Source: Raja brachyura
Lineage: Eukaryota
Direction of reading: 5' to 3'
DNA: 64,000 nt
NCBI GenBank assembly: GCA_963514005.1
Contig: OY740798.1
Span: 21,266,001-21,330,000, forward strand
This document shows positions 1 to 64,000 of the stretch, in pieces (the first letter of the stretch is position 1; each line of letters begins with the position of its first letter). Both the position numbers and the translations under genes were made by a program. The notes beneath the pieces were generated by a model. That model did no database searches. It had not been told where the DNA came from and saw only the letters and a list, made by a program, of their open reading frames with translations.

Positions 1-211
1 TCTTGAGGAAAAAGTAAAGTGCAGGAGGAACTTGGTTGTGAAGGGAAATAGACTGATGGTATTTCAGGTAGGGATTCTTCTGCAGACTCCATTTCGCAGG
101 TTATTTGATTTACTGATCACGCCTTGTTTATGCTCTGCAATAATTTTCGGTTTTCCTTTTCCCTCTTCATCTAGTTGTTATATATTTCCCCCTTATGTAT
201 TTACATTGAAA

Positions 212-4990: not shown

Positions 4991-5546
4991 AGCAATCACA
5001 GATTATATTCTGAAATTTGTTCATCAGATGGTACAATTCCATTTTTTTTACTTGTGATCTTAATTCAAGATGTATAAAGTATGTGAGTAAACTAACTAGG
5101 TTTTGCATTTGAACTTCTCCCATTTTTGCCACCTTACCTGTGCAGGAAATGTGGCCTGGACATTTGTTCAGGGTGTTTTGTGCTGTTGTCTCATCTATTG
5201 ATAAATCCAAAATCACAGCCTCAGATATCTGCAGAATGAGAGAGAGGCAAATTCTTGGAAATATTAATTTGACCTTTCCTAGTGACCCAAGGCCTAGATA
5301 CTCCAGATGTACAGAAACTATCGCCAGGCACAATGTTGATTCTGCAGTCTAGAATCCTTGGCTTAACTTGGTACTCTTGCAGTCTGCGTGCTTTAATGAG
5401 AAACCTACTGTGCTCCTTTAACCCCGCTATCTAAACAATACTACTGCTCATTGGTCAATAGGTATATACTTGACAGAGCATGGGTTTAATTTGTATTTCG
5501 CACCATTACTTCTGCTTTATACTAACATCTTATCTCTCCACCTTAG

Positions 5547-5766
5547 GTTATTTGGCCAAGATGGACTTTGCTCTGCCTGTGATAAACGGATCCGAGCCTA
5601 TGAAATGACAATGCGAGTAAAGGATAAGGTTTATCACCTGGAGTGTTTCAAATGTGCTGCATGTCAAAAACATTTCTGTGTGGGAGATAGATACCTGCTC
5701 ATCAACTCAGACATTGTTTGTGAACAAGATATTTATGAATGGACTAAACTCAATGGGATGATCTAG
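5547..5766 (+). CDS. LMO2: LMO2 last coding exon, LIM domain 2 and stop
   Basis: Branch point TACTAAC (5520-5526), pyrimidine tract and ccttag|G acceptor. Translates [72 protein letters not shown]. Phase matches the preceding exon. Confidence 0.97.
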
Positions 5767-15599: not shown

Positions 15600-16260
15600 T
15601 TGTGTTGAGTGCGAGTGTCCCGCGATCTGCAGCGGGTTTGATCACGACCGCCCCGTGATTCTCCGCCTCACTTGCCCCTCCGCTCTGCCCAGTTTGAAGA
15701 TTTGCCCCAGAACCCGGGCCCCGGGCCTGTCTGTGACCCCGGGGCCGGCGGATCCCCCCACCTGCGGGAACTCCGGGGCTTTCCAGCCGCGCCTCCGCAT
15801 CGCCGGGCTGGTCCCCAGTCTGTCAGTCAGTGGCGAGCAGAGCCGAGCAGCGAAAGGGCGAAGCGCCGTTTAAGGGCATCGCTCGGTGCACAGCCGGCGG
15901 GAAGATGAGGGGCGACGAGCTGGGACACCGGTTGCTGCTGACCATCTCGGGAATCGGCGGCTCCGTCGCCTTGATCTACTCGGTTTGCAGCCGAGATTGG
16001 TACGCGGGGAGAGGGCTGTGGTACAAGGACAGCATCACGCAGCCGGCGAACCAGCTCAGCCGAGGTAAGAGATTCCGTGGTGCCACCTTGTGCCTCTTCT
16101 GCTCTCCTCCTGCGTGAAGGAGCGCAACGTGGTCACTTGCGGAAGATAGACACAAAATGATGGAGTAACTCGGCGGGACAGGCAGCATCTCCTGAGAAAA
16201 GGAATTCCGCGTCGAGAGTCTTCTTCAGACTGAGGCCACTCGGCCCACTGTACGTCTGCC
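15600..16260 (+). promoter_or_regulatory. CpG-island-like promoter/first exon of the tetraspan gene
   Basis: Sharp GC/CpG enrichment over the AT-rich background, surrounding the ATG at 15905. Confidence 0.6.
15905..16064 (+). CDS. Uncharacterised claudin/PMP22/EMP-superfamily tetraspan protein, exon 1
   Basis: aagATGa start and CGAG|gtaaga donor. MRGDELGHRLLLTISGIGGSVALIYSVCSRDWYAGRGLWYKDSITQPANQLSR contains TM1 and a W-x4-GLW motif. Confidence 0.8.
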
Positions 16261-17007
16261 TGCCGTTTGAAAGAACCATCCTGGCAGACCCCTCCCTCCC
16301 ACCCTCTCTCTCCTAAACTGTGGGCGAAATTGCCAATTTCAATTTACAACTGAATGCCCCTAATACCTCCCCTCCTTTATACCAGTCTTCAGATGACCAA
16401 TGTGTTGTACTTTTCTTTGATTCTTAAGTATAATCCTACTGATTTTCTGATTTAGCTTTGATAATCTGCGTTTTGCAGATTCAAGCTTCTCCACACCACC
16501 CACAGTGCTATCATTTGTGCTTAATGAGCTGTTTCTACTTTGACAACTATTGCTGTAATAAAATTCTATTTTAAGTAAAATTCTGAAGCAGATATTAAGT
16601 GGATAAAGTGGCATTCACAATATTTGGAATATTTGATGTAAATATTTGGAAAACATTTAACTGCCAATTATTTTCCATTTTCCACTGGCATTGGTTGGTA
16701 GGCAATCAAACTACATTCAAACCTCTGGCCACACAAGCTGTCCGGGCATCGTGAATTGAGATGGAGCCTTCAGTCTTTCCAATGGGGTGGAACAATGACC
16801 AAATATTGCGATATTTTCACAAACTCTAAAGCCATGTTTCTCCTGATGAGAATTTATGCAGTAAACGACCAGAGAATCTGCCAGGTCTCGTATGATAATA
16901 TTGTTTTTATTAGAAGAAAAAGATCTGAAGGACAAGCAATTTTACGAATTAGAACCATGAAGTGCTGCGTGTGATTTTGCTTAGTCAATCTTGGGTTTCC
17001 TTTTCAG

Positions 17008-17184
17008 CTGTGGAAACAGAACGTGTGCTTGGAGTGATTGCGAGTATGATGGCCGTCATCGCCATCTGTCTCTGTTTGCTGTTTAGCTTTTGCTGGGATC
17101 CATACACTTACAGTGAATCCAAGATGAATCCTGGACGAATTCGCCAACCAGAAAAACTGTTACTTACAGTACTGATGCCAACTG
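17008..17184 (+). CDS. Tetraspan protein exon 2 (TM2, intracellular loop, start of TM3)
   Basis: tttccttttcag|CT acceptor, ACTG|gtaaga donor, phase 1-1. (A)VETERVLGVIASMMAVIAICLCLLFSFCWDPYTYSESKMNPGRIRQPEKLLLTVLMPT. Confidence 0.8.
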
Positions 17185-18509
17185 GTAAGAGAATCATGAT
17201 CGATTAATTATTTTAATAAAGCTGTGACTAGCCAAGCCATGTAAATAAACAAGCAGCCTGAACTGCCGAGTCCCTCCAGCTACTTGTTTTTTTGAAAATG
17301 AACAAGGTTTTTGTTTTAACTCCAAAAGGGAAAAATAGCCAATGGTTCTGGATCCTGATTACTTGTCAAAATGTCCTGCTTGAAGTGAATGTGAACACCA
17401 GATATGATGACCTGGTTTGAACAGTGTTTGAAAGCATGAAAAGATCTTGAAAGTTGGTGGATAGGGCAGAGATAGGGCAGAAGGTTGCCTAGGAATACAG
17501 TGCTACATACAGGCCAGGAATCCAGCAGTCCTTGGCAGGTCGAGCACAGGTACACAGCGAAACAGTCACCTCGTGTGTAGGTGCACGCGAACCTCCATCT
17601 CACCGGGAAGGGTTGTGGGGTACCTGGATGAAGGTGAGGGAGGAGAAAAAGGCCAGGTGTTCCATCCTCTGGGTTTGCAAGAGAATGTACCTGCAGAGGG
17701 GGCATGTTGGGTGGGAAGGAATGAGTGAAAAAAGGAGTTGCAGAGGGAGTGGTTACTATGGAGAGCGGAAAGAAATGGGGATGGGAAGATGTGACAAGTG
17801 GTGTCAAGTGGAATGTGGGAAAGTGGTGGGAATGTTTGAAATGCCACTGCTTCCGCGAGAGGTTAGCAAGAGTGCAAGGTGGTGGACGTTGACTACATGA
17901 ACTGCAGGAAAGCCTTTGACAAGGTTACACAAAGTAGGCTGGTCTGGAAGGTTAGATTGCATAGGATCCAGGGTGAGTTATCTAATTGGTTCCGTAAGTG
18001 GCTTGATGGTATAAGCAGAGGATGATAGTGCAAGGTTGTTTTTCAGACCGGGGGCTTGTGACTAGTGGTGTGCTTCAGGGATTGATGGTGGGCTCATTAT
18101 TGTTTGCCATTTGGATGAGAATGTTCAAGGGTGACAAAGAAGGCTTTTGTCATGGTGGTCGTCATTAGTGAGGATGCTTTGCGTGCAGGAGATGTGATGT
18201 TCTATTGTGAGGTCTTGGTGAGGCCATTTGTGGAGTATTGTGTTCAGTTTTATTTACCCTGGTATGGCAAAGACCTCATTTAGCTGGAATGAGTGCAAAG
18301 AAGATTTCTGAAAATGTCATAATTCAACAGACCGAGTTAAAAGGAGAGGTTGGGCAGGCCTGGAGTGTATTCTTTGGATGGTAGGGGACTGAGGGGGTGA
18401 CCTTATGGTGGTGTATAAAATCAGAGGGGCATAGATAAGGTGTCTTTTTTTTTAAACAGATTTTCCCCCTGGATAGGGGAATCAAAAATGAGAAGGCACA
18501 GGTTTGAGG

Positions 18510-19380
18510 TATAGAAACATAGAAAATAGGTGCAGGAGTAGGCCATTCGGCTCTTCGAGCCTGCACCACCATTCAATATGATGGCTGATCATCCAACTCA
18601 GTATCCCGTACCTGCCTTCTCTCCATACCCTCTGATCCCTTTAGCCACAAGGGCCACATCTAACTCCCTCTTAAATATAACCAATTAACTGGCCTCAACT
18701 ACCTTCTGTGGCAGAGAATTCCAGAGATTCACCACTCTCTGTGTGAAAAATGTTTTTCTCATCTCGGTCCTAAAAGATTTCCCCCTTATCCTTAAACTGT
18801 GACCCCTTGTCCTGGACCTGCCCAACACCGTGAACAATCTTCCTGCATCTACCCTGTCCAACCCCCTAAGAATTTTGTAAGTTTCTATAAGATCCCCCCT
18901 CAATCTTCTAAATTCTAGTGAGTACAAGCCGTGTCTATCCAGTCTTTCTTCATATGAAAGTCCTGACATCCCAGGAATCAGTCTGGTGTACCTTCTCTGT
19001 ATTCCCTCTATGGCAAGAATGTCTTTCCTCAGGTTTGGAGACCAAAACTGTACGCAATGCTCCAGGTGTGGTCCCACCAAGACCCTGTACAACTGCAGTA
19101 GAACCTCCGTGCTCCTATACTCAAATCCTTTTGCTATGAATGCTAACATACCATTCTCTTTCTTCACTGCCTGCTGCACCTGCATGCCTACTTTCAATGA
19201 CTGGTGTACCATGACACCCAGGTCTCGTTGCATCTCCCCTTTTCCTAATCGGCCACCATTCAGATAATAGTCGACTTTCCTGTTTTTGCCACCAAAGTGG
19301 ATAACCTCACATTTATCCACATTATACTGCATCTGCCATGCATTTGCCCACTCACCCAGCCTATCCAAGTCACCTTGCAG
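18510..19380 (-). mobile_element. CR1 (HER1-like) LINE 3' fragment, young
   Basis: 227-aa ORF 18685-19368 with the CR1 RT C-terminus (WQMQYNVDKC..ERDLGV..RRLRGDLIETYKI..FFTQRVVNLWNSLP) and (catagaaa)n tail. Inserted into an older plus-strand CR1 (~17900-18510 and ~19395-19650). Confidence 0.92.
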
Positions 19381-20374
19381 CCACCTTGCACCTTGCAGTA
19401 TGAGTGGAAAGTGTTAAAAGGGACCTGAGGGGCAAAATCTGCACACAGAGGGTGGTCCATATATGGAACGAGCTGCCAGAGTAAATGATTAAGACAGGTA
19501 AAATAATATTTAAAAGATATTTGGACAGGTACTTGGATAGGAAAGGTTTAGAGGGATATGGGTCAAATGGAGGCAAATGGGCAAATTAGTTTAAGTGGGC
19601 AGCTTGGCAGCATGGACGTTGGCTGAAGGGCCTGTTTCTGTGCTGTATTGCCCAGTGATCTACTAACCTTCAGAAAAATCTTTTGAAATAATATTCAAAC
19701 ATGCAGAAAATAACTGAAATTCTCTACTTGACAGGATGTATAATTAGTACATATTTGGGATTAATATACGGTGTACCTGACGTAGTCCATACTTGATTTA
19801 CAGCTGTTTAGCATGTATCAATGAAGTGCATCTTACCACCTTTTCTCCGGTCAAGACAGTGAAACAATTCTACCTTGGTTCTCTCAGCACAGCTATATTT
19901 TGATCAAACCTGTTACATTGCTGATGGAACAATCTGAAACACACTGAAATAGAATAGATTCATTTTGATATGTTTATAAAGCATAAAATGCTATCAAACT
20001 CAGCTTTTTGTATTGACCAGTGGAGAATTCCAATAAAATTTAAGTGATTGAGTGCAATGAATGGTTAATTGCACAATTACATTTGACATGATGCAACTTA
20101 CTGAGTAAGATGTATTTTGCTTTGTAGTTCTGTGTACCGACTAGCCTTCCCACCCACTTTATTTCTTTGAAGGAAATGTGAGTGAATCAACTATTTATCT
20201 AAGTGGAAGTTAAAAGGTCCCTGGAAAACATTATCACATCAACATAGATCGGACAACTGTTATGATGTAACTGTGTTTCATGAGCTATTTTTCAGTTGTC
20301 AAAATTCACTGTCAACACATAGCATCATAATTGCTTGACTGATCACAATAATATTTTGTTTCTTCTATTTTCAG

Positions 20375-20592
20375 CTCTATTGTATTTTATCTCATGGTGT
20401 TCATACACCAGTCGTTACAAGGAACAAATCAGGAGTGATATCACAAAACTTGGCTCTGCATATTGGGCGGGAATCTGTTCTTGTCTCACTTTGTTAGTTA
20501 TTTTGCCAATTATACACTTGATGAAAGAGTGCGCACTTTCAGAACCAGAGACTAATCCGCAGAGGAGCTCAAAATTTCAAGAGAACATATAG
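20375..20592 (+). CDS. Tetraspan protein exon 3 (TM3, ECL2, TM4, tail, stop)
   Basis: tctattttcag|CT acceptor. (A)LLYFISWCSYTSRYKEQIRSDITKLGSAYWAGICSCLTLLVILPIIHLMKECALSEPETNPQRSSKFQENI*. The three exons sum to 555 nt = 184 aa plus stop. Confidence 0.8.
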
Positions 20593-30071: not shown

Positions 30072-30352
30072 TTATTTCTCTGCAAGCTTGCAGAAAACTT
30101 CATGGACTTCGGGATTCTCTTGAGCAAACTGTTCAGCTGTGTTTCTCTGTAACCAGTCAGTTGTTCGAATCTGTTCACGGAGAAGTCCAATCAGACCATC
30201 AAGAGCAGGATCTGGTAGAGATGGCTGGACACCAATTTCTATGACTTCTTCGGCAATTTTGGTCCTACTCTCTGAATCAGAATTTGGCTCTTTATCAAGA
30301 GATTGGATTACTGAATCTTGCTCTTCCAGGACCTTCCAAATTCTGCGCATTC
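30072..30352 (-). CDS. ACCS: ACCS-like last coding exon (GMRRIWKVL...EVHEVFCKLAEK*)
   Basis: ctgttag|GA acceptor and TAA stop. The 14 exons sum to 2048 nt and stay in frame from the phase-1 start to the stop. Confidence 0.88.
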
Positions 30353-32255: not shown

Positions 32256-32409
32256 CTAGTTGTAGCCTACTGGTTTTGTCAGCAAACACAATGCTGAACC
32301 ATCCAGGTTCACAGCACCCAAATGATTTCCCACTGCTGAGAAGGATTTTATTTTTAAGAAATCGCTTCCATAGTTTTGTTTCTTCTTCAAATGTCGGATT
32401 CCTTAAGTA
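32256..32409 (-). CDS. ACCS: ACCS-like exon (YLRNPTFEEETKLWKRFLKNKILLSSGKSFGCCEPGWFSIVFADKTSRLQL)
   Basis: atccag|/|gtgagt, 154 nt; EPGWF motif. Confidence 0.93.
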
Positions 32410-37749: not shown

Positions 37750-37891
37750 CTTGGTCTCTCAGTAACTGTGCTACCATATGTTGTGTGGCAACTGGAACAC
37801 CATGGAAGTGTGACAGTTGGCCAAGGGCACTAATAACATCAGCATTCTCAGTGTGTAGAGTACCTAGATGAAGTCCACTGGCTGTAAAATC
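37750..37891 (-). CDS. ACCS: ACCS-like exon (DFTASGLHLGTLHTENADVISALGQLSHFHGVPVATQHMVAQLLRDQ)
   Basis: gttcag|/|gtaaga, 142 nt; aligns to DFGMSGLRFGTLYTEN...AQLLRDR. Confidence 0.92.
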
Positions 37892-41480: not shown

Positions 41481-41526
41481 CTTTCTAATTCCCCACATAA
41501 CATGAGTTCTCTGTGGATCAGGAAGC
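41481..41526 (-). CDS. ACCS: ACCS-like exon (LPDPQRTHVMWGIRK) with the PLP Schiff-base Lys
   Basis: tttttcag|/|gtaaat, 46 nt; aligns to LPDPQRTHVMWATSK. Confidence 0.92.
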
Positions 41527-42469: not shown

Positions 42470-43506
42470 AAAGTTTTTGTGAGGTTGGAGGAGGCACTGT
42501 GCAGCATTTATTGCTACATTTTTTCCTGGATATGCCACACAATTAAGATTTTGTTCACTATACCTCTCAATGGACAGAATCGGTATTGCAACACAGTCAC
42601 TGCAATGAGGTCAACAGCTTTGCAAAGATTTTCCCTGTGGCAGCTGGCAAGGAGACAATTACAAAATCAGATGGTTGTTTACTTGGTGTAATGATTACCA
42701 CACTTATGTCCCTTTCACATTCTCCTCTTCTTAGATTGTAATGTATATAAAGGTAACTGTAACTTTAAGTACTATAATGGTATGATTTGTGTCATGTGAT
42801 ATATTCTATATCTAATCAGTCTCGTGAATATATGTGAGTATGCGCAGTGTACTTTTGCAAAATAAGGAAGACCCACACTGGCAACAGCGTGTACTGAAAA
42901 CTTGTGCTTGTTTCTATCTACATGCTGAAACCGTAATACAGTGTCTTACGATAGCGACGAGGATCAGATAGAGTTTTTGATCTCAACCTCCGAATACAGT
43001 GCAGGACTGTTTTGCAATATGCAGCATTGTTTCACATTTTAAACAGCAATTATGAAGCTGTGTCGCAGTTGTTTGCGAACTGGACACGAGAGGCCACAGA
43101 TCCTTCTTTGCATGGGACTGTAGTTTAAAATAGCAGCTGTACAAATCATCTAAAGTTTGTCAGGCTATCTTTGTGTTGTGCCCTGGGGGCAAGATGGCAT
43201 CCTTGGGGCTCATAGGCCGACTAGGGACATTCGACAAGAACTGTGAAACCTTTACCTCGTACTGTGAGCGAATGGAAATGTTTTTTTTGCAAATTACACT
43301 ATTGAAGCTGAAGAAAGAGAGGATGATGATCAAGCGCAGGTAAGAGCACAAATCAAGGCCATCCAAGAACAAAATCAAGTCATTCTATTAACTGAAATTG
43401 GTCCCAAAGTTTATGAAACTCTCACTAACATCCTAGCCCCAGAGAAAGCAAGGAATGTTTCATTTGAGACTGTTCTTTCAAAACCTGATCCTCGCTTCAA
43501 CCCTAA

Positions 43507-43794
43507 TGCCCCTGTCCCACTTAGGAAACCTGAACGGAAACCTCTAGAGACTTTGCGCCCCACCCAAGGTTTCCGTGCGGTTCCCGGAGGTTTTGTCCTC
43601 CGGCAACCACCTTCAACTAGCATCGGAACCGGCTTCGACTAAAAAATTACCGATTTTTAAAACGGAAACTACTTTCGACCATTAGGGAGACTGACAAAAA
43701 CCGCCGGAAACCTCCGGGAACCACACGGAAACCTTGGGTGGGGCGCAAAGTCTCCAGAGGTTTCCGTTCAGGTTTCCTAAGTGGGACAGGGGCA
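43507..43794. mobile_element. PIF/Harbinger-type MITE nested in the Gypsy gag
   Basis: Long TIRs starting TGCCCCTGTCCCACTTAGGAAACC; TAA TSD at 43504-06 and 43795-97. Removing it rejoins gag-like sequence (FNP...EIAESYKFH). Confidence 0.9.
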
Positions 43795-44571
43795 TAAGAG
43801 ATTGCAGAAAGTTACAAATTTCACACAAGAAACTAGAAGTCTGGTCAGACTGTGGGAGAGTACATTATCTCACTGAAGAAGTTGTCTCTACACTGCAATT
43901 TTGCGACATTTCTGGATCGAGCTTTGAGTGATAGATTTGTATGTGGAATGCTGGATGAGCGAGTCAAATCAAAATTACTGACACACCAGCCCTTACCTTT
44001 GATTTAGCATGCAAAACTGCTTTGGCCATGGAGATGGCATGTCAAAGTGCACGGGTTTCGACCAACACATGCTGGCGCAGTCAACAGTCAAAAGGTAGTT
44101 CCAAAACGCAAGCATGACAAGACAGGGAAAAGGCCTTCACAGGAAAGTTCTGTGAAAAGCGTATCTATGTGCTATTGATGCAATGGTCAATGGTAAAGCA
44201 AATAAGTGCCAGTTTAAGGACTATGTGCCAAAACTATCAAAAGAAAGATCATATTGCATCAGCATGTAGAGCACCATCACATGATAAAGCTAAACAAAAG
44301 GCTCGAGAAAACCACATGCGTGGGATTCATAATTGAACACTCGGAGAGTAATGAACTTGGACTGTACGGCATCTATACTATGAACGGTGGGTCTGGATAG
44401 GAAGACTTTCAGACAAGGGTCAAAGTGAACAATCAATACATCAATACTATGTGCATTGATACTGCTGCTGATTGCACAATTATAAGCAAAGACACCTATG
44501 AATCCAAGTTTAGCAATATGCCTATCACAGAAACAAACGTTCAACTGAAAACGTCATCTGGAGATGTATTT

Positions 44572-44775
44572 GAGGACGTGTTAGAAGTGTGCACATAAAC
44601 CATATGTTCCCAGCAAAGGATGAACCGATACAAGAGCAAAGCATAGACGAAGAAGTAGGTCTGTCAGACTTTGCTATTATTCTAAAGTCTGACAGATCTA
44701 CTTCTTCGTCTATGATTTGTTCTTGTACCCTTGCTGGGATCATATGGTTTATGTGCACACTTCTAACACGTCCTC
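44572..44775. repeat. ~200-bp palindrome/hairpin inside the Gypsy element
   Basis: Arms 44572-44672 and 44684-44775, 11-nt loop, about 5 mismatches plus one 9-nt indel. Homologous to 45847-45941. Confidence 0.95.
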
Positions 44776-46760
44776 CAATTTCTACCTTTTCAGTCACAGC
44801 AGCTGAAATTGCTGCTGAAACTCAAAAGGACACAGTGCAAAAACCAGTACACGAACAAACTTTGTGTGGATGGTCAGAAATAAAACCAAGTACTAATCAC
44901 CTAAAACCATATCACAATAAATGACATGAACTGTCATGTAAGCAAGGGTGTTTTAAATGGGATCACAGTGTAGTAATTGTTTAAGACAAAGATTCCATAA
45001 AGAACTCCATCGTGAACACACAAGTCTTGTGGGAATGAGGTCTACAGCCAGAGGTTGCATGTATTGGCCAGGATTGGACAATGACATAGAAGCAATGGCA
45101 AGCAAATGTAGCACCTGCCAAGAGTTGTAGAAGTAGGCCTGCCCAAACGCCTTTGCAAACATGGTCTTGGCCCACTAGACATTTTCAGAGGATTCATGTG
45201 GATTTTTGTGAAGACGGGAATAATAATTTTCTTGTTTTGGTAGATAGTCACTCAAAGTGGATTGAGGTGGTACATATGGGTACAAACACAACAACAGAAA
45301 GAAGAATAGACGCATTGTGGTCTATCTTTGCATGTCATGGATTACCTGAAGATCTTGTCTCTGACAACGGCCCCCAATTTCGTGCTGCACTGTTCCAAAC
45401 CTTCATGAAGCTAAATGGTATCAAGCATACCTTAGTGCCAACTTACCATCCGGCATCTAACGGCGCAGCCGAAAGGTCAGTCAGGATAGTCAAAGGAGCT
45501 CTCAAGAAACAAGTTCTTGAAGGGAATTCAAAATTCAGTATGTCACAGCGGCTAGCTAGTTTCCTACTGAAATATCGTACTATGCCACAATATACTGCAG
45601 GGTAAACGCCAGCTGAACTAATGAAAAGAAGGCTCAGAACTAGACAGAGTTTGGTTCTACCTAACTTATCTCCTGAGGTTGAACGAAAACAATTTGATCA
45701 GAAACGTCATTATGGCGGAGGTAAAAAAGAACGTAGGTTTGATACCCTTGATCAGGTTCGTGTTCTCAGAAAAATGTACAATCAGTACAAAGCAAAAAAT
45801 GGGAGGTGGGAACAGTAGTTGAAGTGCGTGGTACCAGGAGGTACTTGGTAGAAATTGGAGGACATGGTAGAAGTGTGCACATAAACCATACGATCCCAGC
45901 AAGAGCAAAGCACAGTTGAAGAAGTAGATCTGTGAGACTTTGGTATTAATGCAAGTTCAGATATAAAATCAGAACCTCCAAAGAAAGTAGAGATAAGGGT
46001 AAATGATGCTGAACGTGACTCTCCTTTAGAACCACAACCTGACACTTCCCCTAAACCACCCAGGAGATCAGAAAGAGTGCGTAAACCAGTCGTCAGATTA
46101 ACTTTATAAAATTAGTCTTGTTTGTCTAATTTACAAGTTATTTTACTTTCTAAGGGGAGAGCAGTGTAGTGTATATAATTATAACTGTAACATTAAGAAT
46201 TGAGTACTTTCATGGTATGATCTGTTTTGTGTGATATATTCTATATCTTATCAGTCTCATGAATATGTGTGACAATGTGCAGTGTACTTTTGCAAAATAA
46301 AGAAAACTCACACAGGCAACAGCATGTGCTGAAAACCTGTGCTTGTTTCGATCTACATGCTGAAGACGTCATATCTTACATAGATGAGGGAGATGAATTT
46401 GCACCAGAAATACCTCTTGATACCTGCCATTTGTTAGAGCTGGAGTTAGGGGTGAAGGCAGGACAATTTGTGTTTAAGGAACAATTGAAAGGACTGAGGA
46501 AACAGTTGTGGGCCAGTTACTGGGATTAGGTGGGGTGCGGATTTGGGGAGGGTGGATGGCAGAGGTTGGTGTGTGTCAGCCTCACCCCGTGGAGAGAGCA
46601 GGTGGGCAACAACGTTCCTCAACAACTCGCCTCAGAGGCTCTTTAAAAAAGACAATGGGTTTCTGACAGATGATAATATAAAAGTCAAACACACCAATAA
46701 TTGTAAAAGCAGGAAAATAATTAGGAGACGTACAATATTTAATATTAAAGTAACACTCAC

Positions 46761-56416: not shown

Positions 56417-57063
56417 ATTCGGGTTTTTGTCTTCATCGTACTTATCTGCGTGATGCGCAGGAGAATCTTTCTGAAATATTCCAAAAAAATTCTTAATTTC
56501 ATTTCCTCTTTTCGATAAATAAATACTTGACTGAAGCTGCTGGAATGTGGGATTCAACTCTGCATGAGTTGTAACATCTCTCAATCCATTTGGTAAAGGT
56601 TTGCTCTGATGCTGGAGCACTCTACTGCTACCATCTTTGGAGGTGGAGGCTGAGCTCGGGCTACCAACTGTTTCAGTAGCTTGGTCAGAAGACTGTGAGA
56701 AGACCCGGCTGAGGTCCAAGCCCAAGTTCTGCATGGAGCCACCGTGTCGAAGCGCATTCACCATCTGAGCAAAGATGGTGAACATTCTGTACTCGTGCTC
56801 CCTTTCCAGCTCCATCCGGCGCTGTTCCAGTTGCATCCGCCTGTCCTCTAGTTCCATGTCCCGTTGCATTCTGCGCTCCTCCATTTGTAGGAAACGTTCC
56901 TCCACTACTCTCTGCGCTGTGAGAAATTTAAGAAGAATGTCATCTAAGGGATCCTTCACCCGGGGTGGCTTCCTCTTCCGGCGAAGTCTGTGTAGGGTGG
57001 AAAATGCAGGCCCCGAGGTGTGCATTCCTGAAGACGTGCCACCTATATTCTGATTGACATAGT
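56417..57063 (-). CDS. ACCS: ACCS-like gene, large exon: basic stretch, coiled coil, linker and start of the ACC-synthase-like domain
   Basis: atttcag|AC acceptor and AAT|gtgagt donor. Ends SSIYLSKRG...DKYDEDKNPN, matching the vertebrate ACCS N-terminus (YLSSRG...DEYDEDKNPS). Starts in phase 1, so further exons lie upstream. ACCS versus a paralogue cannot be settled from the sequence alone. Confidence 0.88.
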
Positions 57064-57655
57064 CTGAAATAAAGAAATACAGAGTTAATCCAAAAATACA
57101 TTGCTTACGATTCCAAAAAACTGCAACACTTGTATTTGTGGTCATAATAATGAAGTAATGCATCTAAAGAAACTATTCAAGGTTGAACTCGTATATCAGT
57201 GTTAGCTCGGTGACACCATCCCTCCTTTGGAGATGTTCTTCTTCAGGATTTGCATACATCTTGGCTGTTACTTCTGATAATCATTGTCTCTTTCACCTGG
57301 CACAAATGGCACATCGGAACACGGCCACTTCGCAATTCCCCTGTGCTGTGCTGACTTACAAATAAATGACTGCTCCTTCTATTAAATGGGTAATAAACAT
57401 CAGGCCAGGATGCAGCGTTCACATCCCTGGCGTATGTAAATACAGTATTCAGGGAAGAGTGTATTCATGAAATCCTGTCATTTAGAGGTGATGTTTTGTT
57501 TTGGATGAGACTTCGGCAATGTAACATTCCTATAATACTTCAACAAACAGGAATTTCCCGTTTCCTGCTCAGTAGTTTTTCACCACCAAATATTACCAAA
57601 ATAGGCTATCTTTTCATCAATGAATTGCTGCTTGTAAAAAGAATGTATAAATTGC

Positions 57656-60600
57656 TTTGGCAAGTCAAGACGATGGGTAAGTAAAATTTGTTTTATTTTG
57701 AGAATTAAAATAACGTAATTACCCGAGTCGCTAAAGAGTCAAATACACGATGTTGGTCACACACGCGTGGCGCTAGAATGAATCAATACAGTAAATACAA
57801 CACCCGCGCTCATGTGACTTCTCCAGCCAATCGCGAGGGTTCGATTACACAGAGCCACCACCAGGTGTCGCTACAGAACCCCCCCCCCCCCCCCACTGAA
57901 CCCGAGTTACGGAATCGAGCAGGGGGCCGGACACGGCGACCGGAACACGTGGTACTTGGAAACGGGCCTAGCATAACAGAGGGGGCTGGTGGAACAAAGC
58001 CAGGGGACTGTAACTGGGTGGGAGGAACAGAAATAACCGGAGCGGGGGCAACAGACACCTCCAGATCGGCCGGCGGACGTCCCCTACCACCGGGCTATCG
58101 ACGTCCATGTGAGCAGGCTCGAGCCGGGCGACGGAGGTGATCTCCTCCCGGACCCCCACGTCCAAAGTGAAAGTTGCGACGCCAGAGCGCAACACCTGGA
58201 ATGGCCTCTCATAGACGCGATGCAGTGGGGACCGGTGTGAATCCCTGCGGACAAAAACATATAAACAGTTCTGCAGGACCGGATGGAACCCCAAACCGAG
58301 CAATCCAATTGGCCGCAAGGGCCCGGGCACAAAATGCGGTGGAGGTGTCCAAGAGCAGGATGGCCTCTGGCCATCTCGTAAACCGATCCACCACCGTGAA
58401 GTGATGAGTGGCGCCTCGGGATGTCGGTAACGGGCCCACCAAGTCAACATCGATGTGCAGAAACCGGGCCGAAGGGACAGCAAAGTCCTGTACTGGGTCC
58501 GTACATGCACATTGGAAGCGCGGAGGTTGCCCGGATGGAAGGGTGGGCCAGGCCATGGATTGCGTCGAAAATCTGACGGCGCTAACGCACGGGAACGATG
58601 GGACGTGGTCGCCCAGTGGAGATGTCACACAGCACCACCGTGCCCGAGGGCCTGCAAGGGACGTCGGTCAACCGCAACCCAGAAGCAGCTGTCTTGTAGT
58701 CCGTCATCCCATCATCCGCTGCAGCCAGCTCCACGCCGTGGTCCACGGCCGCCACCGCCAGGAGGGCAGAGCGGGACAGGGCATCAGGGACCGTGTTGCA
58801 CTTGCCAGCCACGTGCTGCACGTCCATGGTAAACTCAGAAACAAAGGCGAGGTGTTGCTGCTGCCGCGCAGACCACGGGTCGGACACCTTTCCCAAGGCG
58901 AAAGTCCGGGGCTAATGGTCAGTAAAAGTGGTGAAAGGCCTGCCCTCCAGAAAGTATCGGAAATGACGGATGGCCAGGTATAGAGCAAGAAGCTCCCTGT
59001 CAAAAGCACTACAGTTGCATTCAGGGGCCCGCAGCTGACGGCTGAAAAAGGCCAGCGGCTGCCAGCGTCCGTCGATGAGCTGCTCCAACATGCCGCCCAC
59101 AGCCGTGTCAGAGGCATCCACCTTGAGAGCCGTCGAGGCCGAGGCCCACGGGTGTACCAACATGGTGGCGCTCGCTAGGGCCGCTTTGGCCCCCTCGAAA
59201 ACAGTGTCTGCCTCAGGGGACCATACGAGCTCCCGCGGCTTTCCCGCGAGGCATTGGAAGAAGGGGCGTACGATTCTGGCTGCCGCCGGCACGAAACGGT
59301 GGTAAAAGTTTACTATCCCGACAAACTCCTGCAACCCATTCACCGTGCGCGGCCGGGGAAACTGGCGGATGGTCTGCACCTTAGAGAGTAAAGGGGTGGC
59401 GCCCTGAGATGTTACACTGTGCCCCAGGAATTAAATGGAGCGGAGGTCAAACTGGCATTTGGTGGGGTTGATGATAAGGCCATGGTCCTGGAGCCACTGG
59501 AACAGAGTCTGCAGGTGCGCGAGGTGCTCCTGCTGAGAGAGCCTCGCAACCAGTATGTCGAGTTAAATGTAGACGAAGTGCAAACTCCCACCGACCATGT
59601 CCATGAACCTTTGGAACGCCTGCGCGCCGTTTTTTCAACCAAAAGGCATATGAAGCCATTCAAACAGCCCGAACGGGGTGATGGTTGCGGTCTTGGGTAC
59701 GTCGTCCGGGTGCACAGGGATTTAATTATAACCGCGGACCAGGTCTACCTTGGAAAAAAAGGTAGCGCCTTCCAGATGGGCCGAAGAATTTGTATGTGTG
59801 GCACAGGATAGCGGTCCGCGGTTGTAATGGCGTTCAGACGCCTATGGTTCCCATATGGTCTCTACCCCCTAGATGCCTTGGGGACCGTGTGTAGCGGGGA
59901 TGCCCACGGGCTGTCCGAGCGCCGCACAATCACCATGTCCTCCATTAGCTGGAACTCCTCCCGGGCGATGTGCAGCTTGTCTGGTGGCAGCCGGCGCGCT
60001 CGGGCGTGCACTGGCGGTCGCACGGTGGGGATATGATGCACGACCCCGTGCTTGGGGGCCGCCGTGCGGAAACGGTGGGTGGGGAGATCCGTAAACTCGG
60101 CCAGGACGGAGGCACAGGGGCCCGCAACCTCGGCCACCGCGCTGAGCTGCGGGCTGGGTCGAGCCAAGGACCGCGGGTCCGAGGCCTACTGGTGGAATCA
60201 TGCGCCCGCCCCGCACATCGACTAAGAGGGAGAAAGCCCGGAGGAAATCGGCGGCCAGGAGCGGTTGTGCAACGTCCGCGATGATAAAGATCCATTTGTA
60301 CAGGCGGGAATCAAAGGATAGGGAGAGGGTCCGCCTGCCGTAGGTTCGGATCAAACTTCGGTTTACGGCCGTGAGCACAGGGCCCTGCTTACCAGCACAT
60401 GTGTCTAGCCCAGTCGGGTTAAGGATACTCACAGAGTCCCGGTCGTAGCCCTTGGTGGCGGTCGCGCACGTAGAGGCGGATGTTCGGGCTGATGGCGATC
60501 GCCTCTACTGATGATCGACCGAGGCATTTCCCGAAAACGAGCAGCGTTGTCGGCATCGGCGGGCCTCAGTGCCCCAGCGGAGATGGTAAAAACACCACTG

Positions 60601-61490
60601 GCGCTTACCCCGGTCTCCAGCACGTGGCTGCGGCTCTGCGACGTTAGTGGTGGACAGGGCGTCTCCGCGGTCTCGGCAAGGTGACTGGCGTGCAGGCACA
60701 GAGACCCGGTTTATAGACCCTGTTGGTTCGCGAGCCATAGCTCGTCGGCCCGTTCTGCGAGGTGCATGGGGTCGGTGAAGTCGGACCCGGCGAGCATCAA
60801 GCGGATGTCATCCGGCATTTGTTCAAAGAACGCCTGCTCGAACAGGAGGCATGGGCGATGGCCGTCCATTAGGGTGAGCATCTCGCTCATTAGGGTGGAC
60901 GGCTTGCGGTCGCCCGGACCATCCATGTGCAGGAGGCGGGCGGCGCGGTCTCGGCGGCTGAGCCCAAATGTACAGAGGAGGAGGGCTTTGAGGCCGTCGT
61001 ACTTCGCGAACGTCGGTGGGTCCTGCAAGAACGGCAGTAACCGCCTGATTGAAAGCCCCGACGACGTGGAAATACTTTGTGTCGTCGACGACGATATTCC
61101 GCAGTGGAACTGAGCCTCGATGTGTGCAAACCAGACCTGTAGTTGCTCTGCCCAGAACACGGGCAGCTTGAGGCCCACGACGTTTTGCTGGGCGTCGGGG
61201 ATGGCGGTGGCTCGCATGATGGAGTCCAATATTCAGTTGGACGCGTCGGGGTCACCAGTTTGGCGAGTCGAGAAGGTGGGTAAGTAAAATTGTTTTATTT
61301 TGAGAACGAAAATAACGAAATTACCTGAGTTGCTAAAGACAGCCAAATACACGATGTTGGTCCCACACGCGTGGCGCTAGAATGAATCAATACAGTAAAA
61401 AGCCCGCGGATAAAACACCCGCGCTCATATGACTTCTCCAGCCAATCGCGAGGGCTCGATTATACCGAGCCACCACCAGGTGTCGCTACA
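57656..61490 (-). mobile_element. Degenerate Ty3/Gypsy LTR retrotransposon, CsRn1-like lineage
   Basis: LTRs 61259-61490 and 57656-57875; PBS TGGTGACCCCGACG (tRNA-Trp) at 61244-57; poly-G PPT; probable 4-bp TSD ttgc/ctgc. Gag KLPVFW... with a CHCC knuckle (CFYH-x9-C-x3-C); RT (SPWASPLH, TPFGLFE), RNase H (VDAS..ELLA..FTDH) and integrase (HIDVDLVGPLP, VDRFTRWPEA) fragments broken by frameshifts and stops. Confidence 0.93.
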
Positions 61491-63159
61491 CTGCCATGTT
61501 TCCTTATGCTGTACATACAGTTTAAATACACATCACATTGGTTATAATAAAACATTTTGTGCTATCAGGCTGTGATAGAATGATTTAAATGCAAGGTCCA
61601 GAGATCCAGATTATTGCTTTAGTATTCATCCATATGCATCCTAATCAGTAGCTACTCAGCCACATGTATTTGCCCAATGTGGACTCAGAAACATATTTTT
61701 TTCAAATCATTGACAGCCTAAAACAATACCCAGAAAGAATGACTGCACTAAAAACCACATCACAAAGTTAAGTGTTCCTGGGGCAAATTCCTAGCAACAA
61801 AGGAAATCTTAGCCACAACTCAAAAGTACCTGCTTAATTTTCAGAACCCTACAACAATGCCATGCTTTCAGCAAGTGCCAAGCATGTTTCAGCTACAATG
61901 TGTTGTACACATTGGGCAAAGTACATGGAGCTGAGTAGCTCGTGATTTACCAATTAATACCTCAAGTCACAAGGGCACATTTTCTCAGAAGTGGTGGCAC
62001 CTCAACATAAACACCATGATCTAATCCTTTTTAATTGTTTTTATTTCCCTTGTTATTTCAACTTTAAATTTAATTTATCTTATGCACAGCAGCTTCACTG
62101 AGTACCTGCTGTTCTGATTAATCCGGCTCACTGTCAAAGTAGAAGTCTGCTCTAAAAGATGAAATTGCCCCCTGTTCTTTTTCACACCATCAAATTTGTG
62201 TTTAATCTATGATAATAAAGCCTAGATACAAATTCAGTTTAATTAAAAGCATGTTGAGCAAGCTGCAAGACACTTGATTTATCTTTTCCACTGCCACATT
62301 TATTTAATTTCTGTGAAGGCATCATTTTCTGGGAAGGCTCTGTGGATGTTACTACCCTTGAACAAGGGGTGGTTATAGATCTTGGAGGCCTTCACCATCC
62401 CAATTATACACTGATCACATATGGGCACATTGGGTCAGGCCAGGCCATTACTTCATTAAGTGCTTATTGAAATGCCTATCCCTAGTACATTCAATAGTAA
62501 CTAATGAACAGCGTAGACAGACACAAAATGCTGGCGTAACTCAGCGGGTCAGGCAGCATCTCTGGAGAAAAGGAATAGGCGACGTTTCGGATTTAGACCC
62601 TTCATCAGACCTTCATGAACAGCAAACCAGTAAAAGGTGAAATGGTAGTGGGCCAGTGTGGGCAAGTTGGGCCAAAGGCCCTGTATCCATGCTGTATCAA
62701 TCTCTGACTCTATTCTATACTTGATTTGAACAGAAGGACAATTTTTTCCACTATCCCACCGCTCTTCCCTCGTTTTCCTGTCCCCTTCCACCTATATCAC
62801 TCCTTTTAGCTTTACATTTCACTCATCTTTTCTCGTTATTTGACAACCTTTCGTCTCCTATTCATTTCTAGCCTTGGTCCCTTAGTCCACCCACCTGCCA
62901 ATTAATCCCTCCTAAGCTGTCTCCAGCTATCACTTGCCAGCGTTTGTCCTGCCTCACCTCTTTTCCAGCTCTCCCATCCACCAATCAGTCTGAAGAAGAG
63001 CCTTGACCCTATTCATTCCATCCATAGATGCTGCCTCACTAAATTATTCCAGCACTTTGTGATTTGATCAAGATTCCAGCGTTTGTAGTTCCTTCGTTGT
63101 TTGTAGTTCCTTGTGACAGCCTCGGGTGCACTTGTACCATGGTCACCATTGCAGACAGA

Positions 63160-64000
63160 TCAACCTTCCTGAGAGTGAACCTGTGGCAACTGGCATGGAT
63201 ACAGACCCAGCCATATCCTCAGAACCACTATGGACCAGCTGGCAAGAGTATTCACAGACCTCTCCCTAATTCCATCTGAGGTTAGCAACAGGTTTGCAAA
63301 TACCACTATCATCATAGTGCCAAGTAAAAACAAGGTATTGTTAATTGACTACTGCCCGGAGGTTAAGTGCTTTGAGAGGCATGTTGTGGTGCACATCAAC
63401 TCCAGCCTCCTATGAAGCCTTGATCCACTGCAATTCACCTACTGCCACAACAGGTCTACAACACACATGATCTCCCTGGGCCTACGCTCATCCTGGAAGA
63501 TCTGGATAACACCTCCATCATATCTTATTTATTGACTATAACTCTAACTACACTATCTTAATTCCAACCAAACGCATTTCCAAACCCTTGGACCCAGGTC
63601 TCAACAACTCCCTCTGTAATTGACCTCCTAACTTGTAGACTGTAAGTGTCTACTAGTCTACACAGTGTCTACACAGGTGGTGAGGAGTAAAACATCCTCC
63701 ACAAAAATTCTCAACACTGGTAGCCTGCAAGGTTGCATTCTCAGCCGCTTACTACACTCCCTATAAACTCACAAATGTGCGGCCAAATTCTGCTCTTTCC
63801 ACAAGTTTGCAGATGACACTGCCATAGTGGACCTGATCTCAAACAATGATGAGATGGAGTAGTGGAAGGTGATAAGTGAGCTTAATAGCATGGTTTCAAG
63901 GCAACAACCCCTTCCTCAAGGTGAGCAAAATGAGAGGCAGTCAGTGACTTCAGGGTTTGCGCAGCATGCACACCCCGGTCGGTATTAATGATGTCAAGAG
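63160..64000 (+). mobile_element. Rex1/Babar-like LINE RT fragment (runs off window)
   Basis: DQLARVFTD..IIIVP..VKCFERHV and TGSLQGCILS..KFADDTAIVDLI motifs with stops. Confidence 0.8.

Follow-up and report, generated by a model that had tools for sequence, protein, structure and literature searches.

A Myb/SANT-like module of likely Harbinger origin is fused to the ACCS PLP domain in jawed vertebrates and retained in batoids beside a likely non-catalytic enzyme half

The ACCS gene of Raja brachyura encodes a protein in which a Myb/SANT-like domain, a basic cluster, and a long helix precede a fold-type-I PLP domain. We observed its gene structure, its splicing, the conservation of the architecture from chimaera to marsupials, the pattern of its loss, and residue changes in the enzyme half. 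We think it reasonably probable that the protein acts in the nucleus as a DNA-binding regulator, with the helix and the fold-type-I domain serving as dimerisation or partner surfaces, the enzyme half being likely degraded in batoids and still in frame.

The gene model was built by mapping the transcript-derived protein P0002 onto the window (the whole 64,000-nt stretch of contig OY740798.1 that was analysed) plus 120 kb of upstream sequence. It has 15 coding exons, all GT-AG, is stop-free over 902 aa, and differs from P0002 at 15 of the 902 residues (Table 1). Coding exon 2 is flanked by an acceptor ending in tttcag and a donor starting with gtgagt, and was single-copy in a search of the 2.7-Gb R. 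brachyura assembly. One open frame runs through RLRRKRKPPRVK, DPLDDILLKFL, an E/R/M-rich run to EREHEYRMF, a Ser-rich linker, and the first ACCS motif; the contents originally described for this exon (an NLS-like stretch, an E/R run, a Ser-rich linker, and an ACCS motif) are thus all there in a single frame.

Table 1. Features of the R. brachyura ACCS gene (window positions unless a locus is named).
Feature	Residues (aa)	Position	Strand	Remark
Non-coding 5' exon		ends near L002:6034		upstream of coding exon 1
Coding exon 1	1-220	G000:C18:21334457-21333797 (L002:4457-3797)	minus	Myb/SANT-like domain; beyond window
Intron 1		in-window part 57064-64000	minus	phase 1, 10,733 bp; splits exon 1 from exon 2
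Coding exon 2	221-436	57063-56417	minus	basic cluster, long helix, linker, first ACCS motif
Basic cluster RLRRKRKPPRVK	246-257	56954-56989	minus	predicted NLS
68-aa E/R/M-rich helix	259-326	56747-56950	minus	AF2
Start of ACCS fold-type-I domain	402-436	56417-56521	minus	aligns to lamprey and plant ACS N-termini
PLP-domain coding exons 3-14		span 32256-54638	minus	
Exons 3-8		54638-54579, 54232-54162, 52699-52630, 52000-51934, 49837-49740, 49198-49121	minus	
Exons 9-14		48291-48191, 46850-46761, 41526-41481, 37891-37750, 34160-34018, 32409-32256	minus	
Arg662 and Lys663	662-663	41481-41486	minus	Arg662 replaces apple Ser272 (skate-specific); Lys663 is Schiff-base Lys273, kept
His671	671	37868-37870	minus	replaces PLP-site Arg281, all batoids
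Ser797	797	32293-32295	minus	replaces substrate-carboxylate Arg407, all batoids
Last coding exon		30072-30352	minus	carries C-terminal helical module
C-terminal helical module	856-902	30072-30215	minus	conserved from annelid/echinoderm to marsupial

The original prediction placed a Myb/SANT domain in upstream exons. Coding exon 1, located 3.8–4.5 kb past the window end, encodes such a domain (PF13837, aa 12–99, E = 1.9e-20), and single contigs of 4006, 3953, and 4049 nt join this exon to the first 30 nt of exon 2. The contigs come one per run from three runs of three studies; the runs have no RNA label on record and were read as mRNA because the contigs skip introns. All three also cover exon 2 and carry the full fusion, and the contig from run X17 has a depth of 16.6, the same as at PLP exons 5, 7, 9, and 10. 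An annotation artefact or two adjacent genes were ruled out by these junction-spanning contigs. The encoded protein clusters with skates and has skate diagnostic residues. Translation starting only after the helix had been named as an outcome that would speak against the fusion; the long ORF begins at the Myb ATG and is preceded by two in-frame stops. Short isoforms may exist beside it: an early Met is present in exon 2 of 40 of 54 orthologues, and since the Myb domain is missing from 28 of 101 models, short forms may carry part of the function.

Several other elements were seen in and around the window. Intron 1 holds an LTR retrotransposon remnant (57656-61490) with broken gag/pol pieces and direct repeats at 57656-57875 and 61259-61490 (87%). 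A second LTR-element remnant with an integrase core (PF00665) lies in intron 10 (43268-45605). A multi-exon membrane-protein gene on the plus strand (about 15900-20556) begins in a CpG island, and the scanned piece gave no Pfam match; because the same gene follows ACCS in the bony-fish-type model P0290, the neighbourhood is conserved. The last exon of a LIM-domain gene (PF00412), presumably LMO2-like, lies at 5422-5766 on the plus strand. About 36–40 kb past the window end (L005-L006) are retroelement-like ORFs, which we take to resemble a tyrosine-recombinase (DIRS-type) retroelement.

The PF13837 match scored 73.5 bits in P0002 (cut-off 27) and 78 bits in the genome, and an Atlas search that used a bird orthologue's N-terminal module returned PF13837 clusters alone. 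The AF2 model of aa 1–106 (mean pLDDT 74) had its two best matches in DNA-binding domains, that of Sap1 (Z 11.3, rmsd 2.9, 92 aligned) and that of GT-1 (Z 9.5, rmsd 2.1, 69 aligned); the match after these had Z 7.3. Foldseek also ranked Sap1 and GT-1 on top, but with E >0.001. An aromatic core of W14, W26, and W91 was kept in every row with a residue, and no variation was seen among the 54 aligned orthologues at the core positions of the putative recognition helix (G61, Q63-E66, K69, and E74-R76). Identity to shark over aa 1–101 was 80–100% in 53 of the 54 and 74% in one goby, a conservation higher than that of the enzyme domain. The domain is net basic (22 K/R vs 16 D/E). Myb/SANT domains can, for their part, bind proteins and not DNA (PMC9392472).

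Against run X2, 21 of the 23 codon differences listed were synonymous. The 303 nt coding for the Myb domain (L002:4155-4457) had no listed base difference, synonymous ones included, from runs X2, X17, and X18, and X2 had nine listed base differences in the other 358 nt of exon 1. Extra nucleotide-level constraint on the Myb-coding stretch is possible.

At least four K/R per 6-aa window were present in the basic cluster of 53 of 54 orthologues; we take RLRRKRKPPRVK to be of the nuclear localisation signal motif type. A psi-K-x-E motif, presumably a SUMO consensus, was equally frequent (53/54). In the full AF2 model the E/R/M-rich run forms one 68-aa alpha-helix with pLDDT of 79–88 per 10-aa block, followed and preceded by other modules from which it is set apart by predicted disorder (about 140 and 70 aa between modules). 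Helix identity among cartilaginous fish was 98–100%. The hydrophobic period of the helix peaks at 3.6 and not at the heptad value of 3.5, so the coiled coil that had been proposed here is no more than plausible.

The distribution of the fusion was assessed via relatives of its two first exons. Among 101 exon 2 relatives, 71 had PF13837 and PF00155, 28 PF00155 alone, and two PF13837 alone. For the Myb domain, both families were found in 119 of the 120 relatives listed (of 258). The listed two-domain proteins came from chimaera, sharks, rays, gar, teleosts, coelacanth, lungfish, amphibians, reptiles, birds, monotremes, and marsupials, and no named placental was among the 120 listed of 258. Long ACCS N-termini, suspected at the outset to be annotated already in other non-mammalian vertebrates, were thus found across non-placental jawed vertebrates. 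Searching 1.84 billion representatives with a profile brought in unfused relatives among the best 150 listed.

We placed these proteins on PLP-domain trees (33 rows, LG+G4, drawn from a quick tree of 64 rows). Lamprey and hagfish orthologues were sister (100/99) to a jawed-vertebrate clade (100/99), and this single clade with placental ACCS/ACCSL and cyclostome ACCS makes the gene a member of the vertebrate ACCS/ACCSL orthogroup. This orthology rests on the tree and not on an EXT neighbour, as the EXT-family match on the same contig is about 19.9 Mb away from ACCS. The Myb domain and helix were missing from both lamprey models (two annotations), and the hagfish model is a fragment. ACCS proteins of amphioxus, echinoderms, hemichordates, and annelids were unfused. 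Placental ACCS and ACCSL grouped with fused marsupial proteins (100/99) and so fell within the fused clade; a tree constrained to make the 18 fused rows monophyletic was rejected (p-AU 0.014, the group having been named after the first tree).

No Myb domain was found in the placental ACCS/ACCSL proteins examined. The statement that human ACCS has no such segment agrees with the placental ACCS examined, all from non-human placentals, but placental ACCSL keeps a decayed copy. The N-termini of 15 closely related cat ACCSL proteins scored 12–15.6 bits against the helix profile, with reversed sequences below 0 and none of 500 shuffles reaching the score of either sequence tested; the alignment was colinear from helix through linker to ACCS motif. 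One rodent ACCSL gave a weak match (6/500 shuffles), and in three guinea-pig-group models the helix region or its signal was absent. Because the lamprey models are unfused, placentals nest in the fused clade, and ACCSL has a relic, it is likely that jawed vertebrates acquired the N-terminal module on their stem and that placentals lost it. The C-terminal helical module predates the fusion, as the ACCS proteins of lamprey, amphioxus, echinoderm, and annelid also have it; it had no Pfam match and no usable Atlas match and was not seen in the placental proteins examined. In Heterodontus, a 2007-aa model (P0269) runs the complete gene together with a tandem copy beginning at exon 2, which may parallel the route by which placental ACCSL arose.

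Evidence on the origin of the N-terminal module came from a metagenome scan, in which two stretches were confirmed among the 596 candidates listed. One metagenome contig carries an intact-looking Harbinger-type element (L057:397-3302) with both ORFs open: a 278-aa PF13837 ORF convergent with a 349-aa DDE_Tnp_4 (PF13359) transposase. Its termini are imperfect 23-nt inverted repeats. The PF13837 ORF matched the Myb domain of the fusion (44%, E = 7e-25) and, in the same order, the basic cluster plus helix (37%, E = 5e-6), with a KKRKR cluster at the same place as the basic cluster. Fusion profiles scored 85.2 (Myb) and 31.4 bits (helix) on this ORF, values reached by 0 of 500 shuffles each. Since Myb domain, basic cluster, and helix occur in order in this ORF, the whole N-terminal module is of the Harbinger cargo type, and the Myb plus helix module of ACCS is likely a captured Harbinger gene, a link drawn from this one element. 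In another stretch (L058), a Myb ORF was found with no recognised transposase.

Standalone genes at C9:48.86 Mb and C18:29.40 Mb share with the fusion gene its first two exons, the phase-1 intron between them, and the helix, and end after the helix. The resemblance first noticed to the C-terminal helix of MSANTD/Harbinger-like proteins is borne out by this shared helix in standalone host genes and in the Harbinger ORF. Over 92 Myb residues, identity to the fusion was 38/92 for the Harbinger ORF and 37/92 and 34/92 for two standalone host genes; as the element is barely closer, capture via an already domesticated gene is possible. Two-exon Myb/SANT plus helix genes were located at L051 (C9:48.855-48.860 Mb), L053/L054 (C18:29.40 Mb), L055, and L056, and are possibly further Harbinger domestications.

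A donor among the Harbinger copies of the skate's own genome was rejected in the sample covered (two copies of a repeated family; four transposase loci of 152 matches), where the second ORF is MADF-like and has no match to the fusion Myb profile. This repeated family (L047, L048, and about 150 other places) includes two copies 94% identical over 4.4 kb and many open 469-aa transposase frames, and it was possibly active recently. No transposase remnant was found near the fusion gene (window plus 120 kb), and single copy, no transposase nearby, and the same downstream neighbour in a bony-fish-type model are features of a fixed locus. The position of the join inside exon 2 suggests read-through into the old first coding exon and not a new splice.

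Capture of transposase domains is a theme with a wider literature. A wave of Harbinger domestication that produced MSANTD1-4 and NAIF1 was described by Etchegaray et al. (2022, PMC9392472) in a screen that started from human proteins. Such a screen would have missed the fusion because it is absent from the placentals examined; the main text of that paper does not contain "ACCS", "aminotran", or "fusion", and its supplements could list more genes. Approved binding experiments were obtained for two human Myb/SANT proteins that derive from transposons (PMC11601247).

In the enzyme half, PF00155 covered aa 438–804 (E = 2e-52), and the best Foldseek match was apple ACS (TM-score 0.84 by target length), by alignment to which residues are numbered. 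The ACS active-site set comprises Tyr85, Asn202, Asp230, Tyr233, Ser270, Lys273, Arg281, and Arg407 (PMC10813531), and Arg150 is also counted (PMC1282579). ACC synthesis is not expected because Tyr85 (Trp in 50/54), Ser270, Pro146 (Gly), and Arg150 (mostly lost) are replaced across the animal family, which does not match the residue set of true ACC synthase (EC 4.4.1.14). Reading Tyr472Cys as the loss of catalytic Tyr85 was ruled out, as apple Tyr85 aligns with Trp475.

Batoids show further replacements. Arg281 was His and Arg407 was Ser in 14 of 14 batoid rows (the R. brachyura genome, eight named species, and five Logan proteins from the skate cluster) vs none of 20 other rows. The H/S pair was limited to batoids among 201 stored proteins of the fused type, the non-batoid exceptions being one Ala and one Leu row, both poorly aligned models; K273 was kept in 196 of the 196 rows with a residue. 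Ser272Arg was added in nine skate-type rows, and Tyr145Gln and Tyr233Phe in stingrays and mantas, which leaves R. brachyura with S272R, R281H, and R407S. Lys273, Asp230, and Asn202 have changed in no batoid, so the batoid pocket may still attach PLP weakly.

Protein-level rates (not dN/dS) differed between the modules. Lineage-specific changes in batoids vs sharks numbered 50 and 12 in the PLP domain (p = 1e-6), 1 and 0 in the Myb domain, and 0 and 0 in the helix. Relative-rate comparisons gave 42–58 batoid vs 12–20 shark changes in the PLP domain (7/7 triplets, p from 0.005 to 2e-7) and 0–2 changes in the Myb domain or helix, and linkers were faster in batoids in three of seven triplets. Root-to-tip values for batoids vs sharks were 0.190 vs 0.089 for the PLP domain, 0.190 vs 0.142 for the linkers, and 0.006 in both for Myb plus helix; the batoid PLP domain evolves as fast as the batoid linkers. 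All 13 downstream exons remained in frame in batoids, with a C-terminal module 89–94% identical to that of shark. Judging from these sequences, the batoid enzyme half probably serves as a non-catalytic scaffold.

The genome has another ACCS-like gene, unfused, at G000:C2:68.468-68.490 Mb (L025-L028), with no Myb match within 160 kb; in the tree it falls with lungfish and paddlefish proteins that are likewise unfused (97/94). As it has Cys at that position, both ACCS genes of R. brachyura lack Arg281. The rodent ACCSL proteins P0300, P0441, and P0328 lost Arg281 independently, and one is also without Lys273 and Arg407.

From these observations we infer four steps: nuclear import, DNA binding, dimerisation, and loss of PLP chemistry. 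On the stem of the jawed vertebrates, a Harbinger Myb ORF would have become attached to what was then the first coding exon of ACCS. The basic cluster would import the protein into the nucleus, the trihelix-type domain is predicted to bind DNA, and the fold-type-I domain (normally a dimer) may, together with the long helix, bring two DNA-binding heads into a pair or serve to recruit partners. In batoids, cofactor chemistry may have become dispensable with the fold and the DNA-binding module kept. Pocket loss with fold and Myb domain kept would imply that neither catalysis nor ligand sensing is required for the function retained in batoids.

The best-surviving alternative, which we still hold to be unlikely, is that the ancestral and non-batoid protein follows a MocR/GabR-like logic, PLP plus an amino acid or amine switching DNA binding or co-factor recruitment, and that batoids lost the switch and became ligand-independent. 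The order of domains is that of MocR, a DNA-binding domain and then a class I aminotransferase-like one (PMC5320631), but the long predicted disorder between the modules gives no sign of allosteric contact. Among the 201 fused-type proteins, R281 and R407 are each kept in all but one non-batoid row and K273 in all 196; lamprey and placental ACCS, which are unfused, have the same intact pocket, and a sensing role is therefore not needed to account for its retention. The family-wide alteration of plant substrate residues (Tyr85, Pro146, Arg150) and the retention of the fusion across jawed vertebrates fit a switch. In GabR, Arg319, Ser311, and Arg430 bind the PLP phosphate and the ligand carboxylate, and R319A weakens PLP binding (PMC11669113). 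Sensing of this style, put forward in the original prediction, is not supported for R. brachyura, in which the phosphate- and carboxylate-binding Arg and, as in other skates, the pre-lysine Ser are replaced; because all positions equivalent to the three GabR residues (an equivalence from motif spacing, not alignment) are affected, amino-acid or PLP sensing is improbable for the R. brachyura protein. Sharks, bony fish, and non-placental tetrapods have an intact pocket, and there PLP-ligand sensing has an outside chance. Equally doubtful is the wider proposal that jawed vertebrates built a vitamin-B6/amino-acid-sensing factor, convergent with MocR/GabR, from a Harbinger DNA-binding gene and ACCS, and that it became ligand-blind in rays.

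Less probable again is a passive fusion, in which the halves share a transcript and work apart, the long form as a transcription factor and short forms starting in exon 2 as an enzyme, so that each half can be lost alone. Placentals did lose the Myb half (AU p 0.014) and batoids degraded the enzyme half, and the long disordered linkers, the models without the Myb domain (28/101), and the early exon 2 Met (40/54) are in keeping with it. A useless half should truncate, however, and batoids keep the 13 downstream exons in frame and the C-terminal module; moreover, every one of the three contigs carries the full fusion. A chromatin tether or adaptor, whose Myb/SANT domain would bind proteins (histones, a repressor complex, or a HARBI1-like nuclease) and bring an active PLP lyase, is very improbable: Harbinger Myb proteins and NAIF1 bind the transposase/HARBI1 and plant derivatives occur in chromatin complexes (PMC9392472), mammalian ACCS deaminates vinylglycine (PMC12363045), and the psi-K-x-E motif is widespread, but the idea cannot hold in batoids if the pocket is dead, and the domain is net basic with DNA-binding domains as its best structural matches.

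ACCS and ACCSL are poorly understood vertebrate PLP proteins, and their ancestral jawed-vertebrate form is a chimera with a highly conserved Myb-type domain, invisible to human-centred screens because that domain was lost in placentals. To the known Harbinger captures it likely adds one that took place on the jawed-vertebrate stem and had a metabolic enzyme for its host partner. Two natural controls exist, batoids having a degraded pocket beside a retained Myb domain and placentals a retained pocket with the Myb domain gone, and gating of transcription by the PLP domain is directly testable because chicken, Xenopus, medaka, and killifish have the full form. If the convergent-MocR reading were true, placental loss of the DNA-binding head would explain the orphan-enzyme look of human ACCS/ACCSL, and most lineages would still use a sensing factor.

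Among previously described proteins, human ACCS is reportedly the subject of a 2001 study by Koch et al. RefSeq and UniRef already contain the two-domain proteins as "ACC synthase-like protein 1", so the Myb plus PLP architecture is latent in databases; in the full-text literature, where few subscription journals were covered, we found no description of the fusion, the Harbinger link, the ACCSL relic, or the batoid decay. MSANTD1-4 and NAIF1 are standalone and present in humans (PMC9392472), whereas the Myb module of ACCS is part of a metabolic-enzyme fusion that none of the placental proteins examined has. Placental ACCS/ACCSL have an orthologous PLP domain, and ACCSL a colinear exon 2 relic, but the sequences examined are without the Myb domain and the C-terminal helical module.

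MocR/GabR proteins and the fusion both have an N-terminal DNA-binding domain and a fold-type-I PLP domain. The former use a GntR winged helix, whereas the latter has a trihelix Myb domain, long disordered linkers, and an extra helix; Pfam scans of the fusion protein contained no GntR family, and the MocR-type model NF052290 scored 52.8 bits against a cut-off of 487 over aa 491–814, the PLP part only. The residues for PLP phosphate and ligand carboxylate expected of MocR/GabR are replaced in R. brachyura, whereas R281 and R407 are present in 20 of 20 non-batoids. The fusion is not a MocR/GabR member; its domain order is analogous. Plant ACC synthases (apple 1B8G/1YNU, tomato 1IAX) share the fold, with Glu47, Asn202, Asp230, and Lys273 kept in ACCS, but are without a DNA-binding module, and animal ACCS has Tyr85 changed to Trp, Pro146 to Gly, and Arg150 lost. 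The closest solved structures to the N-terminal domain are plant GT-1 trihelix factors and fission-yeast Sap1, which share 16–20% structural identity with the fusion Myb domain and, unlike it, have no enzyme domain attached.
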